From the NCBI GenBank assembly GCA_043754515.1, contig JAYUUO010000262.1:1-24868 (forward strand): a stretch of DNA of 24,868 bases, in the 5' to 3' direction. Positions within the stretch are counted from its first letter, which is position 1; each line of letters starts with the position of its first letter. A program made the translations under genes and the position numbers. The stretch comes from Armatimonadota bacterium. Lineage in GTDB: Bacteria > Armatimonadota > Armatimonadia > Armatimonadales > Armatimonadaceae. Positions 1 to 23,209 of this stretch are shown here, piece by piece. The notes under the pieces were generated by a model. That model saw only the letters and a program-made list of their open reading frames with translations, ran no database searches and was not told the origin of the DNA.

Positions 1-690
1 AGGGCGACCGATTAAAGTCCCCCACAAACCGCCGACGCCGTGTACGGCGAAGACGTCCAGCGTATCATCTGCCTTCACAATGCCTTTGATGCGCGTCGCC
101 ATGTACCCCAAGAGAGCGGCGACCGAGCCGATCAGGATCGCCGACAAAGGGCCGACATAGCCGGACGCGGGCGTGATCGCGACCAGTCCGATCACCGCGC
201 CGGACGCGAACCCGACCGCCGTCGGTTGCTTGAACGTGATCCACTCGATGAGTGCCCAGGTCAGGGCGGCGGTCGCCGCAGCGAGGTGCGTGACCATGAA
301 CGCGTTCACGGCGAGATCGTTCGAGGCGACCGCCGACCCGGCATTAAAGCCGAACCAGCCGAACCAGAGTAGAAACGCCTCGGTCAGCGTCATCGGCAAA
401 TTGTGCGGGCGCAGAAGCGGCCCTCCTGATGTGAGGACGCGCTTCCCGAGCAAAAGTGACAGCACGAGCGCGGAGACGCTGGAGCAGGTGTGTACCACTA
501 AGCCCCCGGCGAAATCGAGCGCGCCCGCTTTCGCGAGCAGACCGCCGTCCCCCCAGACCATGTGTGCGATGGGCGTGTAGACGAGAAGGCTTCAGAGCGC
601 AATGAACAGCACATAGACGGAGAACTTCATCCGCTCCGCCATCGCGCCCGAAATAAGTGCAGGGGTAATGATAGCGAACATCAACTGATA

Positions 691-716
691 AGCACTTGCG
701 TAGAAATGTGTTAGAC
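691..716 (+). repeat. IS630 left terminal inverted repeat
   Basis: AGCACTTGCGTAGAAATGTGTTAGAC matches the reverse complement of 1842-1867 (AGCACCTGTGCATATTTAAGTTAGAC) at 18/26 positions. Confidence 0.88.
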
Positions 717-726
717 TGGATGCACC

Positions 727-1852
727 ATGCCACGCATCAAAACCGTGACCGCCACGGACATACAAAAAGCGGCACTTATCAAGGGAATGAAATACGGTCG
801 TACGCCCTCCTACCAGATGCGCTGTCAAGCCATCCTGCTCAAATGCGAACAACGAACCTCGGTGGATGTCGCCAACGAACTCGGTTGCTGCGAGATGTCG
901 GTTAATTCGGTGAAACGAGTTTCACCTGTACTGGATGGTACGCTTCGCCGAGCAAGGGATCGAAGGGTTGGCGGTCGCCAAAGGGCGCGGCCGTAAACCG
1001 ATCCTGCGGCAGGACAGCGACCTGTCCGCTGTCAAGAAGGCGGTCCAGGATAATTGTCAGCGATTGCATTTGGCGAAAGAAGAGTTGCAAGGCGAGTTGA
1101 ACAAGGAGTTCAGCCTGCCGACGTTGAAGCGGTTCCTGAAAAAATGGTTGGCCGTGCCGTAGTGCGAAGCACTACGCACCCACAAGAGGCTGAAGCGGGT
1201 GGTGCGCGGCGAGCCGTCGCCGGAAGTGTTCGCCCTTCGCTGTGAATGTTTACGGGGCAGAGAAATCGATTGAGGCGATTTTCTTGAATGGGAGGCGTTG
1301 TGCGAACAAGGATACATAGACGTATTCTACGGGGACGCGAGCGGGGTCAGTCTGCGGCCGTGTATAGCGTCGGGGTGGCAACTCAAGGGGGAAGAAGTCA
1401 CCGTGTCCTGTAGGCACGGCGGGCAACTCAACTGTTTCGCCCTGCTGTCGCGTTCCGACGAGTGCTTCGTTCGCGCGATGGAGGCGACCATCACGGGGGA
1501 TTGGCTTGCCGAGCAACTCGGTGACTTCGCCGACGGATTGGGGCGATTAACCGTGGTCGCTTTGGACAACGCATCCGTGCACAAGAAGATGGTGCGCGAG
1601 CATGGCGAGGAATGAGAGCAGAAAGGTTTGTATATCGGCTTCCTGCCGCCTCGGTATTTTGACATGTACTCGCCGCACCTGAACATCATGGAGACACTGT
1701 GGAAGAAACTCAAGTACGAGTGGCTGTGGGCGAAGGATTACGCGGACAAGGGAACATTACATGGGGTGGTGAGCGCGATTTTGCAGGCCGTGGGGACGAC
1801 CTATCGGATCGCCTTTAGCCCGTTCAAGATGCCAGAAACAGGTCTAACTTAA
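727..1852 (+). pseudogene. IS630-family transposase, fragmented
   Basis: HTH region RCQAILLK...VANELGC...GRGRKP, then FYGDASG, VVALDNASVH and FLPP...YSPHLNIMETLWKKLK (IS630 DDE motifs). It is split across ORFs 727-996, 935-1162, 1298-1615 and 1628-1852 by short insertions and a TGA at 1613-1615. Confidence 0.92.
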
Positions 1853-1867
1853 ATATGCACAGGTGCT
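1842..1867 (-). repeat. IS630 right terminal inverted repeat
   Basis: Reverse complement pairs with 691-716. It overlaps the transposase stop (1850-1852) and is followed by TA. Confidence 0.88.
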
Positions 1868-2414
1868 TACATGACATAAAGTCGGGTCGGGATGATCAAC
1901 ACCTCGCCATTAAACACCGATTGGATCGCCGGTCCGGTGTTCTCTAAGAACGCGTTGCGCAGACTACCTAGTACGGGCGACCCGGCTGAGAAGACTCGGC
2001 TGTACTCCACGACTACCCACAGTAAACTGACTACGGGTACCGCGATGAGCGACATCATCATCACGTTCAGCACGTTCTTGCGCCGCACAAGCCCGCCGTA
2101 AAACAGCGCGAGCGCGGGGGTCATCGGGAGCACGAGCGCGGACGAGACGAGTATCCAGGCGGTGTCGGCGGAGCTGGGAACGAACCGCGTGGTTCCTCCG
2201 GCGGTCTACGCGGCGGCATCTCGGGCGGCGAAGAGCAACGTCAGCAGGAGAAGTGCTATGAAAGTGAGAGAACTAGGGGGAGCCGGTCGGGGGAATTGGG
2301 AGCGCATTCAGAGTCCTTCATGTGTGAAATTTCGCAGGCGGATCGGGCCAGAGGGCCGGGTAATCGCCGGGGCGCGTGAGCCACGCCCCGCGCGGGGATA
2401 TGAATTTCGCGTGA

Positions 2415-13033: not shown

Positions 13034-14161
13034 CTAGCACGCCAGCGACGCGGCGAGGTCGGCGAGGCGTTCCGTCAACGCGTCTCTTATCTCGCCCGGA
13101 TCGAAGCCAGGTTCCCAAAGGAGGGACACCACCGTGACCGTGCCGGCTCGTTTATTCAGACGCGGCTCGACCCGCCCGACCAGGCGATCCCCCCACAGAA
13201 TAGGTAGCACGTAGTAGCCCCACCTGCGCTTCGCGGCTGGGGTGTATACCTCCCATATGTAGTCGAAATCCCACAACAGGCGCGTCCGGTCACGGTCATA
13301 TACCAGCGGGTCGAGCGGCGCGAGCAGGTTCAAGGTCTCGCTCGCGCGGGGCGTGGAATCGTCGCCGCCCGTCAATCGGGGAAGGTCGTCTGTGAAGACG
13401 TGCCATGGGCGGACGTCGCCCTCGATTAGAACCGCAGTCGTCTCGCCTTCCTCAAGCATCGCCTTGTCGGCGGGGCGCAATCGGAACAGGCGACGGGCGC
13501 GGAGCCGCTTGCGCGCGAGATACGCGTGGGCTTCGGCGTCCGTCGGGACGGGGGCGGCGAGCGCGTCTCCCGGCAGTAGCCGCTCGATCCGGTCGAAGGC
13601 GCGCAGGAACCCGTCCCGCCGCGCGATACCGAGCCGCCCCTGCGCGAACAGTTTGTCGGCGACGAACGACAGCATATGGGTACGCGTCCCCCACCCCGAC
13701 GTCGTGTGGCCGTGCTCCGCGCCGAGTGCTTTCGCGTCGCGCAGAAGAAGAGGCCCGTCCGCATCCAGCCTCGCGAACAGGGTGTCTGCGGCGGCTTGCT
13801 CGTCCGGCGTCATGGCACCCCACCGCCCTTCCCGCTCCCGCCGATGCCTCATGCCGGGGACGAAGTACGGGTAGTCGCCCATCGGGAGCACGCACAGGTT
13901 CGGCAGGTAAAACTCCCACGCGCGGCGCGGTGCGTCCTCGTACAGGAACCGGGACAGGTCGGCGGGCGCGTAGTTCCGGACGCGGCTCCACAGGATCAAG
14001 TCATGGATTCGCCCGCAAACATGGATGGAGTCTTCCTGCACGAATCCCAGCGTATCGAGCGTGTCCGCGACGGACGGGAGCGTCTGGAACGCGTCAAGGG
14101 CGAAGGCGCGGACGAGAAAGCGGCGGGCGTCGGCGCGCGAGACGGCAAGCGGCGGGGGCAT
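13034..14161 (-). CDS. YcaQ/AlkZ-like (HTH_42) DNA glycosylase, crosslink repair family
   Basis: FVQEDSIHV (QxD catalytic motif), LLAPLDPLVYDRDR...WDFDYIWEVYTPAAKRRWGYYVLPIL.GDRLVGR. Start placed at ATG 14161. Confidence 0.9.
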   Translation of the reverse strand: MPPPLAVSRADARRFLVRAFALDAFQTLPSVADTLDTLGFVQEDSIHVCGRIHDLILWSRVRNYAPADLSRFLYEDAPRRAWEFYLPNLCVLPMGDYPYFVPGMRHRREREGRWGAMTPDEQAAADTLFARLDADGPLLLRDAKALGAEHGHTTSGWGTRTHMLSFVADKLFAQGRLGIARRDGFLRAFDRIERLLPGDALAAPVPTDAEAHAYLARKRLRARRLFRLRPADKAMLEEGETTAVLIEGDVRPWHVFTDDLPRLTGGDDSTPRASETLNLLAPLDPLVYDRDRTRLLWDFDYIWEVYTPAAKRRWGYYVLPILWGDRLVGRVEPRLNKRAGTVTVVSLLWEPGFDPGEIRDALTERLADLAASLAC

Positions 14162-14535
14162 AGGACTGGATTGTACCGCGCGAGGGCGGGGAATATCTCG
14201 GGCGAGAATAAACATCCGTGAAACAAACGCTTATTTATTATCAGACCTTGACATATACTAGCTTTAGTATTAGTCGGAGGACAGAACGGAAGGAAGCGGC
14301 GTGTTAGCTAGCAAAGACGTAACGAAATGCTTTATCGTTGCGCTAGTCAATCTTTATTTGGTTCTCCACGATGGATGATTCATCACAGGTATTACAGCAA
14401 AGTGTATTTCCGTTCGCAGGCAAAAATACCTCGTAAAAAACGGGTTCAAGCAAGCGTAGACGCATTCGTTGCATTCTTCACTCTTCTGACACGCGATCGT
14501 CTTCAGCGCGACGAAATGCGAAGAAGCAGGTGCTG

Positions 14536-14811: not shown

Positions 14812-15238
14812 TTACAGTAGGCCTATCATCGTTCGTATCTCGGTGAGCTGCCGAAGGATCTCTTGTTGCAGACGCAGTTCAAGCTGTTGCCTTTCGATCA
14901 CTAATTGCAATGCGGATTGGTCGCGGCGACGCGTTCTGAGTTGCGGACGGTTCAAGTAGAGTCGCTCTATTAGTCGCTCGCCAATGCCACTCCGGGCGCG
15001 GATGGTGCCGTCTAATTCCTGGTCGAATTCCCATGCCTGCTCGTCGTGAACGGGATGCGGCAAACGATCCGCTTCCAATTCGCCCCAATAGTCTCCTTTA
15101 AACTCGTTACAAGCATGACAAGCATACACAATATTATCGCGCGTCGTCGGTACCGCCCGCGCTAATCGGGCGGAAATAATCATAGGTTAACTCCGAACCA
15201 ACCGTTGTTTCGGACACGCCGCGATAGCCGCAAATGAG
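14812..15238 (-). pseudogene. HNH endonuclease pseudogene
   Basis: One frame reads CGYRGVSETTVGSELTYDYFRPISAGGTDDA, then a frameshift to DNIVYACHACNEFKGDYW...LYLNRPQL. The expected CxxC is CGYR and the expected DH is DY. No intact start. Confidence 0.82.
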
Positions 15239-17520: not shown

Positions 17521-18360
17521 TTACCGCGTCCGCGCGTCACGAAGCCATTTCACGTGCCCGTCCAGAAACACGCGGTTACGCCCCCCAAAATGCACCGCCT
17601 TGCCGCGCGCGGTCACCGGAACCGTGGGGATCGTCGCGGGGAAATACGGGTCTACCACCATTTCGATGTCCGCGACCGATTGCGGATGGAGCGGCGTGAT
17701 CGTTAGGTTGCCGGACGCCGTGAGGTCGCGCAGTGCCTCGTCCTCCGACTCGCCCCAGAACGTCGGCCCCGTCACGCCTGGCTTCGGGAACGTCGGCGTG
17801 TCGAACCGCCAGAGCCAGTAGCGGCACATGGCGGAGCGCGGCTCGTACGGCGCGGGCGGAGTGACCTGCACGGTTTGCGCGAGGTCCGCGAATGTAGAGC
17901 CGGCGACCGCGGGACAGTTCCACACCCGCGCGTCCCCGATATACGAATGGAGCACGATCATCGCCCAGCCGCCGCGCGGGTCGGACGCGGGCCAGCCGGG
18001 ACTCCACGGGCGGAACCCGCCGGGGAGCGCGGTTTTCAAGTCACGCCGATCAGGAAGAAGCCCGTCATAATCCTGCATATATTGCTGAAATCCCAAACCG
18101 ATCTGCCGCAGGTTTGACGCGCAGACCGTCTGCCGCCCCTTTTCCCGAACCTGCGCGAAGACGGGAAACAGGATCGCAGCGAGCAGTAAGATGATGGCTA
18201 TTACGACGAGAAGCTCGATCAAGGTAAAACCGCCCCGGCCAGTTTGTACCGTGGTAAAGCCGAAAGGCCCCCCGCCCGCGCTGGCAATCGCGCCGCCACG
18301 GGCAGGATTGCTAGCGTTACCAGCGTTACCGGCGTCGGGAATGGTGACGGCGCGCATCAT
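17521..18360 (-). CDS. Prepilin-type N-terminal cleavage/methylation protein, DUF1559 with H-X9-DG C-terminal motif
   Basis: [45 protein letters not shown]...YMQDYD and C-terminal [15 protein letters not shown]. Confidence 0.92.
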
Positions 18361-20899: not shown

Positions 20900-23209
20900 A
20901 TGGCGGCGAACATTGACAGCATCCTGCAGAAGGTCAAGCGGTACATCGCGCCCGCCGACCTTGCCCTCGTTCGCCATGCGCATGACTACGCCACCGCGAA
21001 ACACGAGGGGCAGTTTCGAAAAACCGGCGAGCCGTATATTAAACACCCCATCGAAGTGGTGGACATTCTGGCTGGCCTCGAAATGGACGCGCCCAGCCTC
21101 GCCGCCGGGTTCCTGCATGACGTGATCGAGGACTGCGGCGTGTCCCGCGACGAACTCGCCGAGGAGTTCGGCGCGGAGATAGCCGACCTCGTGGACGGCG
21201 TCACTAAACTCAAACTTACCGACTTCGAGCGGCGCGCCGCCGAGTTCCCGGGCGTCGCCGCGCCCGCCCCGAAGGATGGCACCGCCGCAGTTAAAGACGC
21301 CGCCCCCGACCCGCGCAAGAAGAAGCGGCTCGAAACCCGCTCCTCCGCCGAAAACCTGCGCAAGATTCTGCTCGCCATGGCCCGCGACTTCCGCGTCATG
21401 GTTATCAAACTGTGCGACCGGCTTCATAACATGCGGACGCTGGTCGGGCTGTCCCCCGAGCGTCAAAAAAAGGTCGCTGAGGAGACGATGCAGATCTTCG
21501 CCCCGCTCGCGCACCGGCTCGGCATCTGGCAGGTTAAGTGGCAGCTCGAAGACCTGGCGTTCAAGTACATCTACCCGGAAGAGTACGAGGACATCGCCGA
21601 AAAGGTCGCCCGCACCCGCCGCGACCGTGAGAAAGACATCCGCGATGCCGTATACAAACTGCGCGAGGGCTTCGAGGCGTCCGGCATGACGCCCGAGATC
21701 CAGGGGCGGCCCAAGCACCTCTGGAGCATCCACAACAAGGTCAAAAAGAACGAACTAGAGGTCGGCGACCTGTACGACCTGATCGCGCTCCGCGTCGTCG
21801 TCAACACCGTGCAGGAGTGTTACGCCGCGCTCGGCGTCGTCCACGAACTGTACCTGCCGATCCCCGGCAAGTTCGACGACTACATCGCCAAGATCAAGCC
21901 GAACCTGTATCAGTCGCTCCATACCAAGGTCTACGGGCCGCACGGCGAGCCGCTCGAGGTGCAGATTCGGACGTGGGACATGCACCGGATCGCCGAGTTC
22001 GGGGTCGCGGCGCACTGGGCGTACAAGGAGAAGGGCGAGAACGCGAAGAACGCGGGCGGCAAGTACGACTTCGACCGCAAAATGGCGTTCCTGCGCCAGC
22101 AACTTTTCGACTGGCAGCAGGACGCGAAAGACTCGTCCGAGTTCCTGCGCGGCGTGGTTTCCGACCTGTTTACGGATCAGGTGTTCGTGTTCACGCCGAA
22201 GGGGGACGTGCTCGACCTGCCGACCGGTGCCACCCCCGTAGACTTCGCGTACCGCGTCCACAGCAGTATAGGTGAGCATGCGGCGGCGGCGAAGGTGAAC
22301 GGCAAGATCGTCCCACTCGCCTACAAGTTGCAGAACGGCGACATCTGTTCCATCGTCACGCGTCCGCAGGCGAACCCGTCCCTCGACTGGCTCCTGTTCG
22401 CGAAATCCTCGCACGCCCGCTCTAAAATCAAGGCGCATTTCCGCAAACTGCGATACGGCGAAAACGTCATCAAAGGCCGGGAAATGCTGGTCGCGGAACT
22501 CGGGCACCAGAACCTGTCGCCCGATCTTTTGAAGGACACGAAGCGGCTACTGCCCCTCGCGCACGCGATGGCGAAAGAGTCGGTCGAGGATCTGTTCGCC
22601 GCCATCGGGTTCGGGGATACGCCGACCGGGGTTGTCGTGACGCGCATCAAGAGCGAACTCACGGTGGAGCGCGACGAGGGCGAGATCAAAGCGACGCGCA
22701 AGGCGGGCGGGGGCGGGGGCAAACTTTCCATTGCGCCGGGCGGCGTGGACGGCGTCGCGATCTCGCGCGCCAAGTGTTGCAAGCCGCTCCCCGGCGACCA
22801 CATCGTCGGCTACGTTTCGCGGGGCAAGGGCATGGTTTTGCACCGGGACGGTTGCGCGAACGTCGTCGCGTGGCGGACGAAGGAGCCGGAGCGGCTGGTG
22901 GACGTGGATTGGGGCGCGGTGGACAACTCGCGCTTCGACACCGGTATTCTGCTCGAATCGGTGGACCGCGTCGGGCTACTGCGCGACGTGACCGAGATAT
23001 TCTCCGAAAACCGCACGTTCATCGTCGGCATCCACACGTCGAGCGACAAGCAGGTCGGCACCGCTCGGATGCGCATTGACTTCGAGGCGTCGTCAGTGGA
23101 GCAGGTACGGAGTCTGATCCGCAAGGTGCAGAACTTGCAAGATTTGATCGCGGTCTACCGGCTCGGCGTCGGGGCGGAGGAGCGCTCGGAGCCGTCGCCC
23201 GCGCCGTAG
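20900..23209 (+). CDS. relA: Bifunctional (p)ppGpp synthetase/hydrolase (long RSH, Rel/SpoT)
   Basis: HD hydrolase HEGQFRKTGEPY...LHDVIED; synthetase GRPKH, DLIALR, YQSLHT, EVQIRT; TGS FTPKGD...DFAYRVHS; AKCCKP; ACT domain DRVGLLRDV. Confidence 0.97.
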   Translation: MAANIDSILQKVKRYIAPADLALVRHAHDYATAKHEGQFRKTGEPYIKHPIEVVDILAGLEMDAPSLAAGFLHDVIEDCGVSRDELAEEFGAEIADLVDGVTKLKLTDFERRAAEFPGVAAPAPKDGTAAVKDAAPDPRKKKRLETRSSAENLRKILLAMARDFRVMVIKLCDRLHNMRTLVGLSPERQKKVAEETMQIFAPLAHRLGIWQVKWQLEDLAFKYIYPEEYEDIAEKVARTRRDREKDIRDAVYKLREGFEASGMTPEIQGRPKHLWSIHNKVKKNELEVGDLYDLIALRVVVNTVQECYAALGVVHELYLPIPGKFDDYIAKIKPNLYQSLHTKVYGPHGEPLEVQIRTWDMHRIAEFGVAAHWAYKEKGENAKNAGGKYDFDRKMAFLRQQLFDWQQDAKDSSEFLRGVVSDLFTDQVFVFTPKGDVLDLPTGATPVDFAYRVHSSIGEHAAAAKVNGKIVPLAYKLQNGDICSIVTRPQANPSLDWLLFAKSSHARSKIKAHFRKLRYGENVIKGREMLVAELGHQNLSPDLLKDTKRLLPLAHAMAKESVEDLFAAIGFGDTPTGVVVTRIKSELTVERDEGEIKATRKAGGGGGKLSIAPGGVDGVAISRAKCCKPLPGDHIVGYVSRGKGMVLHRDGCANVVAWRTKEPERLVDVDWGAVDNSRFDTGILLESVDRVGLLRDVTEIFSENRTFIVGIHTSSDKQVGTARMRIDFEASSVEQVRSLIRKVQNLQDLIAVYRLGVGAEERSEPSPAP

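Follow-up and report, generated by a model that had tools for sequence, protein, structure and literature searches.

The hairpin inserts and their host element

The window analysed here, a contig of 24,868 nucleotides (JAYUUO010000262.1), belongs to the Armatimonadota genome GCA_043754515.1, a metagenome assembly of 5.13 Mb in 313 contigs (62% GC, 92.7% complete), and near its start it carries a transposase pseudogene interrupted by four short hairpin inserts, the subject of this report. We refer to this genome as G000 and to its contigs by C-numbers (the window is C262), to related genomes as G001–G003 and so on, to homologous loci by L-numbers and to sequencing runs, which were examined as assembled contigs, by X-numbers. 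The pseudogene lies in an inactive copy of an IS630-family insertion sequence (IS; 691–1867, forward strand), recognized by its inverted arms, by matches to the HTH_32 and DDE_3 domains and by a paralogue on C149 that is 82% identical and occupies a different locus of G000. Sequence comparison places the 28-nt arms at 689–716 and 1842–1869, and a TA target duplication is found at 689–690 on the left and 1868–1869 on the right, past which the reading frame of the host gene resumes. That gene, named amt-like (ammonium transporter) by eye from its translation, runs on the reverse strand, with its 5′ part at 1870–2133 and its 3′ part, which also bears a TGA, at 1–688; it appears internally shortened. 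Window DNA is found in sediment, glacier, freshwater and ice metagenomes, and contigs of three runs from other studies (X5, X6, X10) span the IS–amt junctions, so the IS insertion is common to several populations.

The pseudogene (727–1852, forward strand) consists of open reading frame (ORF) A from 727 to about 1144, a slippery A-run at about 1139–1144 where homologues also change frame, and ORF B to the stop at 1850–1852. An initial annotation had described four extra segments in it, three of them palindromic. All four are present where it placed them and all are absent from the intact homologues L004, L006, L007 and L015, from related genomes, and L065, from a metagenome; the count of palindromes was too low, all four being hairpins in origin and the fourth the deleted relic of one. 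Insert 1 (907–929, forward strand), of the family we call A, is a hairpin of 18 nt set between T-C and T-G-T. Its empty alleles read AAY GAC TGG in five homologous lineages (C149, L063/64, L065/66, L067), whereas the window has AAT, 22 extra bases (907–928) and TAC TGG, and the insert is therefore best read as a 23-nt unit that replaces one G, for a net gain of 22 bp. Variants of it occupy the same site in C137 and C70, and an X5 contig with 35 differences to the window spans it ungapped. Insert 2 (1153–1179, forward strand) is a 27-nt bulged hairpin with a GAA triloop, again replacing one G (net 26 bp), and it carries a TAG; its core of 17 nt has the form GTAG...CTAC and a stem of 3 bp. It is absent from L063/64, L065/66 and L015, its extent was judged against L063 (83% identity), and the window has lost 1 nt in the A-run upstream of it. 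Just ahead of that slippery run, near 1137, X5 and X6 have an extra family-A-like hairpin of 21–22 nt.

Insert 3 (1257–1286, or equally 1256–1285, forward strand), a bulged hairpin of family B with an in-frame TGA, is a clean 30-bp insertion. Empty alleles of it are found in L065 and, at loose contig ends, in runs X5 and X13, the flanks of the X13 allele being identical to those of the filled copy on C149. Insert 4 (1651–1665, or 1652–1666, forward strand) is what remains of a family C hairpin with a GGA triloop, 15 of 25 bp being left after a 10-nt internal deletion; the full 25-bp form is present in C149, C125, C217, C256, L063/64 and runs X6 and X10. Predicted DNA folding energies are −5.2, −9.9 and −4.0 kcal/mol for inserts 1, 2 and 3 and −6.2 kcal/mol for the full form of insert 4, and Rfam gave no match across window positions 600–2000. 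The pseudogene has one further lesion that the initial annotation did not list and that arose apart from the inserts, a TGA at 1613–1615 (forward strand) that replaces a conserved Trp codon by a point nonsense change. Contigs from run X2, which may be the source sample of the window, cover inserts 1, 3 and 4 with 0 differences and 0 gaps, and X5, X6 and X10, which stem from studies other than that of X2, carry filled alleles. The four segments are thus real and precise insertions of hairpin DNA, 22–30 bases long if insert 4 is taken in its full form.

Dispersed families with a conserved fold

Copies of three of the inserts are scattered through G000. Insert 3 has 35 matches at no more than 8 mismatches, where neither of two shuffled genomes has any, and full-length insert 4 has 7 copies at no more than 2 mismatches, 4 of them in IS630 elements and 3 in tnpB elements. 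Insert 1 by itself is not above background in such a scan (9 matches against 9 and 2 in shuffles), and the status of family A rests on pattern and structure scans. A de novo hairpin scan of G000 returned clusters of 127 and 84 related hairpins, whose usual shape is T, C, a 17–26-nt hairpin in which an A-tract pairs with a T-tract, and then TG; in family C the T-tract comes first, and the loop is often of three bases, with a bulge of one base near the foot. A-tract hairpins flanked by C and TG number 131 in G000 and about 6 in a Markov control, and a looser scan found 249 in G000 against 80 in the reversed genome. The 199 copies curated in total include 29 that ride on one MITE, a miniature transposable element with inverted repeats; these 29 were dropped from the flank and contig statistics, leaving 170.

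The fold of family B is clearly kept while its sequence changes. When copies were chosen by their outer 8 + 8 bases, the inner five pairs were Watson–Crick in 127 of 150 cells, compared with a mean of 99.7 and a maximum of 115 in 2000 shuffles, a statistic that takes no account of relatedness among the copies; several double changes were seen.

Among the genomes searched, all three families are restricted to this genus. Matches to the family A pattern number 11 in G000, 3 in G003 and 0 in 69 other genomes of the class, while the family B pattern occurs 12 times in G000 and twice in G002 among 32 genomes of the taxonomic family and, in a wider collection of genome contigs, besides G000, in two stretches of one Armatimonadota record only. 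In a viral collection neither the family B pattern nor insert 2 had a match. The family A pattern gave two lone matches there, which we treat as chance, the phage contigs being unrelated to G000 and having at most one library match each.

Two observations concern inserts of other sequence. L003, an IS630 of another genus (genome G014), has hairpin inserts of its own, 20 and 24 nt long and unrelated in sequence, and from these the process of hairpin insertion may be wider than one genus. Within G000 a different family of 32-nt inserts with a 6-nt direct repeat is found at C77:13273, C1:67230 and C44:14640.

Junctions and a shared target preference

A hairpin may join its host cleanly, in exchange for one base or with one base added. 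Five family A events swap one base (insert 1, an event in the MITE, C27:2414, C143:8409 and C143:31863), and the base replaced, read on the element strand, is always a purine (G, A, A, A, A). Family B events (insert 3, C284, C50, C143:14672, C125) are clean or their swap is not visible, and family C adds a net 25 bases in IS630, tnpB and tnpA hosts, in frames that were assigned by hand. In two or three events (C271, C223, C219) one base is gained immediately behind another element or repeat. In nested copies the empty site was read from the host hairpin. No fixed target duplication was found at these junctions, where only a weak identity of two flanking bases was detected (z 2.5).

Once homologous contexts had been removed, 133 sites were reduced to 88 for families A, B and C, and these share a target pattern of alternate bases on both sides of the cut. 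C is found at −5 in 56 sites, a purine at −3 in 68 and T at −1 in 58, and on the right side A/T is found at +1 in 63 and a pyrimidine at +3 in 74. The joint context C-n-A-n|W-n-Y occurs at 48 of the 88 sites against 13.7 expected, nearby control positions giving 10–15%, and families A and B each show it separately. A matrix built from the 78 sites outside IS630 ranks the sites of inserts 1, 3 and 4 at the 99.3rd, 89th and 97th percentiles of intact IS630 positions. Of 18 held-out sites, 13 exceed the 80th percentile and 3 fall short of the 40th, several being the same site in paralogues and so not all independent. A single target preference in families that are unrelated by sequence points to one machinery.

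Two other accounts of the target were rejected. The left and right flanks lack complementarity, as would be needed for a hairpin-shaped target, and the guide/target pairing rule of IS200-type elements, when applied by hand, suited some subfamilies but not the main forms of A and B.

Where the copies sit

Contigs C138, C143 and C172 carry 51 of the 170 non-MITE copies. C143 has terminase and portal genes, C172 a serine integrase, and C138 was taken as prophage by eye; a query with one prophage protein found no viral relatives. A type I-E cas operon, as read by eye, at C138:661–9707 abuts the most element-rich prophage-like region. The other hosts are IS630 and tnpB elements, MITEs, IS200/IS605 tnpA genes of G002, other hairpins and, by our own reading, IS3 and RHS pseudogenes. 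A MITE of about 165 bp (13-bp terminal repeats, apparent duplications of 5–6 bp) hosts hairpins at C35:12848, C305:1 and C150:30253 of G000 and on about 20 more contigs, and its copies form a nested series from empty, through one hairpin and a second inside the first, to a third beside them. The tnpB-only elements at C123:6126–7700, C276:1–260 and C281:1–260 bear family C near the end of tnpB, where a guide RNA would be encoded, and the last two have an additional hairpin besides it. In G002 the tnpA genes are full of the same hairpin families (L121 and L139, and also L140, L146, L148 and L149).

Long host-like ORFs contain 55 of the 199 copies, a count that retains probable false positives among curated matches in ordinary genes (C192, C274, C13, C253), where 141 would be expected. 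The copies checked in open genes are in frame, adding 7 residues to a prophage HerA-like ATPase and 10 residues to two tnpA genes. Orientation relative to the host gene, assigned with a codon model, could be scored for 16 of 161 elements, with 6 in sense and 10 in antisense. This is the distribution of selfish insertions filtered by selection. The initial annotation had the hairpins deposited in neutral DNA, and this holds only in part: copies also lie in frame in open prophage and tnpA genes, and the sites follow a shared sequence preference.

Age and repeated use of sites

The IS630 copies of the window, C149 and L063 are separated by a synonymous divergence (dS) of 0.57–0.91 with a nonsynonymous-to-synonymous ratio (dN/dS) of 0.11–0.18, indicative of purifying selection, and they have inserts 3 and 4 at the same base; insert 4 is at that base also in C125, C217 and C256. 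Counted from alignments, only 4 of the 71 insert bases shared by the window and C149 differ (P 4e-11 relative to the synonymous rate and 0.006 relative to overall divergence). Inserts so nearly unchanged in lineages at this distance are younger than the lineages that carry them, and the shared sites would be due to separate arrival at good targets, to spread by recombination or to removal on expression. Lineage-specific bases stand 1–5 nt from insert 3 on both sides, and these, together with the empty allele that has C149-type flanks, argue against co-conversion of the flanks.

Independent arrival at one site does happen. In G002 two tnpA genes that are 83% identical (L121 and L139) carry elements of 30 nt, different from one another, at a shared codon that immediately precedes the helix of the catalytic Tyr; both genes are open, with the inserts in frame, and the codon is empty in three homologues. 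Tolerance of a loop at this position may help. The IS630 copies L063 and L064, found at two metagenome loci, are identical and have, besides inserts 3 and 4, a new hairpin of 29 nt (L063 about 1110–1140) and no other lesion, so that an IS broken by inserts has apparently still been moved in trans.

A model for hairpin movement

The suggestion of the initial annotation that the inserts are very small mobile elements comparable to the small dispersed repeats of cyanobacteria is supported by the dispersed families, the precise filled and empty sites, the nesting and the covarying stems. We think it probable that the inserts are tiny non-autonomous elements that travel as folded single strands of DNA and are moved by one enzyme with a gene elsewhere, for which a Y1/HUH transposase is the foremost candidate. 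The enzyme would read the fold rather than the sequence: a hairpin would be peeled from a single strand and then joined into a site that fits C-n-A-n|W-n-Y. Selection would clear copies from needed genes and retain the in-frame ones in working phage and tnpA genes, and frame-breaking copies would accumulate in IS pseudogenes such as the window transposase.

An element of 22–30 bp is too short for two-ended double-strand transposition, which is why we prefer a single-strand route. Y1 transposases are described as binding 20–25-nt hairpins on single-stranded DNA (PMC6006769), and it is because of this known binding, and because every one of the genus's four genomes has such genes (G002 has intact ones), that we name an IS200/IS605-type Y1/HUH transposase as the likeliest mover; this is a guess, and we hold it tentatively.

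Several results weigh against this reading. No mover of the hairpins was found, and neither an intermediate nor a new insertion was observed. The Y1 genes of G000 are four weak or broken matches, and Y1 genes are equally common in related genera that lack these families. Insert 2 has no dispersed family in the data searched, its two copies, in the window and C149, being at the same site. No orientation bias was detected (81 of 163 same-contig pairs agree and 25 of 55 copies are on the G-rich strand, with weak skew, median 0.012), the Y1 loci examined have no flanking arrays in the style of REPtrons, and the hairpins of G002 are guests inside tnpA genes. REP-associated tyrosine transposases (RAYTs) were looked for with NF047646, which gave 0 matches in G000 and none over the cut-off in 5 relatives, G001–G003 among them, the genomes scanned for RAYT and Y1 genes being 82–95% complete. 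On either side of the cut the target shows a degenerate pattern of alternate bases, unlike the contiguous 5′ tetranucleotide of IS200/IS605 elements, and a one-base swap is not expected from a single cut-and-join; these misfits to the IS200/IS605 rules keep another enzyme, or capture during repair, in contention. Part of the target signal may, moreover, derive from elements nested in other elements.

Other candidates for the mover were sought in G000, from whose assembly a multi-copy IS or the mover gene may be missing. The IS110 model PF01548 had 0 matches, and an all-against-all comparison of ORFs on 37 element-rich contigs revealed no common candidate gene. A Y1-like protein is encoded at C71:14139–14624, and G000 also has 14 tyrosine integrases and five tnpB matches, three of them with family C as a guest, as well as 36 matches to Uma2-type (PD-(D/E)XK) nucleases, which are a lead only; this nuclease family is also expanded in cyanobacteria, where small dispersed repeats occur. 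Two reverse transcriptases were rejected as movers, both being below curated cut-offs and adjoined by no element cluster. One, retron-like, lies downstream of SWIM-like and large unknown ORFs at C263:17469–24488, and the other, at C197:29307–30928, stands beside an Avd-like gene and resembles a diversity-generating retroelement by eye.

A bolder form of the model is possible, in our view, though we do not favour it: an integration system of a new kind, in which one enzyme would take a 22–30-nt hairpin by shape alone and write it into a loose alternate-base target, often replacing one base and leaving no duplication. Among transposable units with an identifiable target rule, such a shape-reading system would be the smallest, acting as a parasite of, or a brake on, IS elements and prophages, and it could be the long-missing mover of the cyanobacterial small dispersed repeats.

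Alternative explanations

The same junctions could be produced by repair without a transposase, if nucleases clipped looped-out hairpins from heteroduplex or single-stranded DNA and a ligase sealed them into one-base gaps or nicks, for example at sites of purine loss, the families being the survivors of this cycle. Each of the five family A swaps replaces a purine, junction lengths vary by 1 nt, the sequences are unrelated and have only the fold in common, and no partner gene was found, all as such capture would have it. The target context that is shared between families and predicts held-out sites, along with the fixed T-C and T-G ends, points instead to an enzyme that reads sequence; the swaps are biased to A, since A-tract hosts account for four of the five, and family B and C events appear clean. 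We regard repair capture as unlikely.

Rare insertion followed by homing would need only one hit per site, with spread among diverged IS630 paralogues by short-patch recombination in which the large loop evades mismatch repair, and a first insertion would still have to be explained. The IS copies are indeed mosaic, identity between the window and C149 falling to 0.58–0.65 at 1455–1575, and shared inserts are near-identical, insert 1 of the window and that of C137 sharing a rarer basal stem. The lineage-specific bases close to insert 3 and its empty allele with C149-type flanks mean, however, that no flank was co-converted; the two different elements in one tnpA codon and the copies in unrelated single-copy contexts also speak against homing, which is improbable as the source of the inserts. 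Given the mosaic IS copies, it may contribute.

If the inserts were micro-introns or ribosome-bypass signals, removed or skipped on expression, the transposase would have stayed functional. The purifying selection under which IS copies sharing inserts 3 and 4 diverged is what this predicts, as are the identical L063 and L064, with inserts as their only lesions. Both orientations occur, however, including an antisense insert in the IS630 of C125, many copies are in non-coding MITEs, those in open phage and tnpA genes keep the frame, as would follow from their being translated, and most alleles lack matching take-off and landing codons. We consider this explanation very unlikely.

The initial annotation had also raised collapsed-IS footprints, that is, terminal repeats joined after loss of the IS interior. 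The arms are inverted repeats, and a multi-copy IS may be missing from the 92.7%-complete assembly, but no insert has facing solitary half-arms within 0.1–5 kb, and the longest exact match to IS630 ends is 5–7 nt (IS630 ends were compared directly and other IS families through the half-arm search). There is, furthermore, no consistent target duplication, and loops and stems covary rather than stay fixed, so that we have abandoned this origin as highly improbable. Lastly, an assembly artefact, conceivable in a metagenome assembly of 313 contigs, is scarcely credible given the identical X2 contigs, the related filled alleles in independent studies and the same inserts in L063/L064 from another collection.

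Relation to known elements

Short dispersed hairpins are not new as a phenomenon, the small dispersed repeats (SDRs) of Nostocaceae having reportedly been described by Elhai et al. in 2008 (Genome Res 18:1484). To our knowledge the movement of DNA pieces of 20–30 bases has gone unexplained since that description. The open-access literature yielded no description of such elements in Armatimonadota, nor of a mover. The hairpins reported here resemble SDRs, as these are portrayed in PMC4390886, PMC5861425, PMC2884548 and PMC3116915, in their length of about 20–30 nt, their dispersal, the presence of several families per genome, the precise filled and empty sites and a preferred target; the likeness is drawn from second-hand descriptions. 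SDR5 is said in the same sources to enter between bases 3 and 4 of the HIP1 sequence, and PMC5861425 reports no SDR outside Nostocaceae among HIP1-rich cyanobacteria. The present hairpins differ in phylum and in their target, a degenerate alternate-base pattern common to all families rather than HIP1, and some of their junctions swap one base.

Repetitive extragenic palindromes (REPs), REPINs and their RAYTs offer a second comparison. In what the sources set out (PMC3733652, PMC6006769, PMC3116915), they share with our families the size, the bulged hairpins, the lineage-specific families and the tandem or nested arrays, and REP subclass 2.4, as presented in PMC6006769, has in-frame hairpins inside the Y1 gene between the HUH and Tyr motifs, as found here in G002. 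Unlike REPs, families A–C begin with (T)C and end with TG and have no GTAG, GTGG or CGTC tag, the GTAG...CTAC core of insert 2 being the only such case; they are accompanied by no RAYT over the cut-off and no REPtron, and copies concentrate in mobile DNA and coding sequence, not between host genes. The recognition unit at the ends of IS200/IS605 elements is likewise a hairpin of 20–25 nt (PMC6006769). Such elements also make no target duplication and have precise empty sites. Here, in contrast, there is one hairpin rather than two ends, the guide/target tetranucleotide rule fails, no strand bias was detected, the skew being weak, and family A swaps one base.

MITEs and collapsed IS elements are non-autonomous and have inverted arms, as the hairpins do, but the MITEs given in PMC3184786 are at least 67 bp long, carry the terminal repeats found in their parent IS and are flanked by target duplications, and the hairpins differ in size and have neither such repeats nor duplications.

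Other short structured inserts in genes are the mobile GC clusters, double-hairpin elements and byps of fungal mitochondria and the Rickettsia palindromic elements. Their hosts and sizes are other than those here, where no sign of translational bypass was seen.

In the present system the junctions are exact, the target rule predicts held-out sites, natural sequence variants are numerous and the candidate enzymes form a short list, so that the question of how such pieces move can be put to the test using synthetic oligonucleotides. Should a single enzyme move every hairpin of the right shape, it would provide a new route to small scar-free insertions and a process by which IS elements are disabled and phage proteins gain loops.

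Other features of the window

A 123-residue ORF with an HNH-like motif at 14812–15183 (reverse strand) had no Pfam match and has paralogues on C126, C246 and C281. Ordinary genes elsewhere in the window, coding for an AlkZ-like glycosylase (13034–14215, reverse strand), a prepilin-type N-methylation/DUF1559 protein (17521–18360, reverse strand) and RelA/SpoT (20900–23209, forward strand), are free of inserts.

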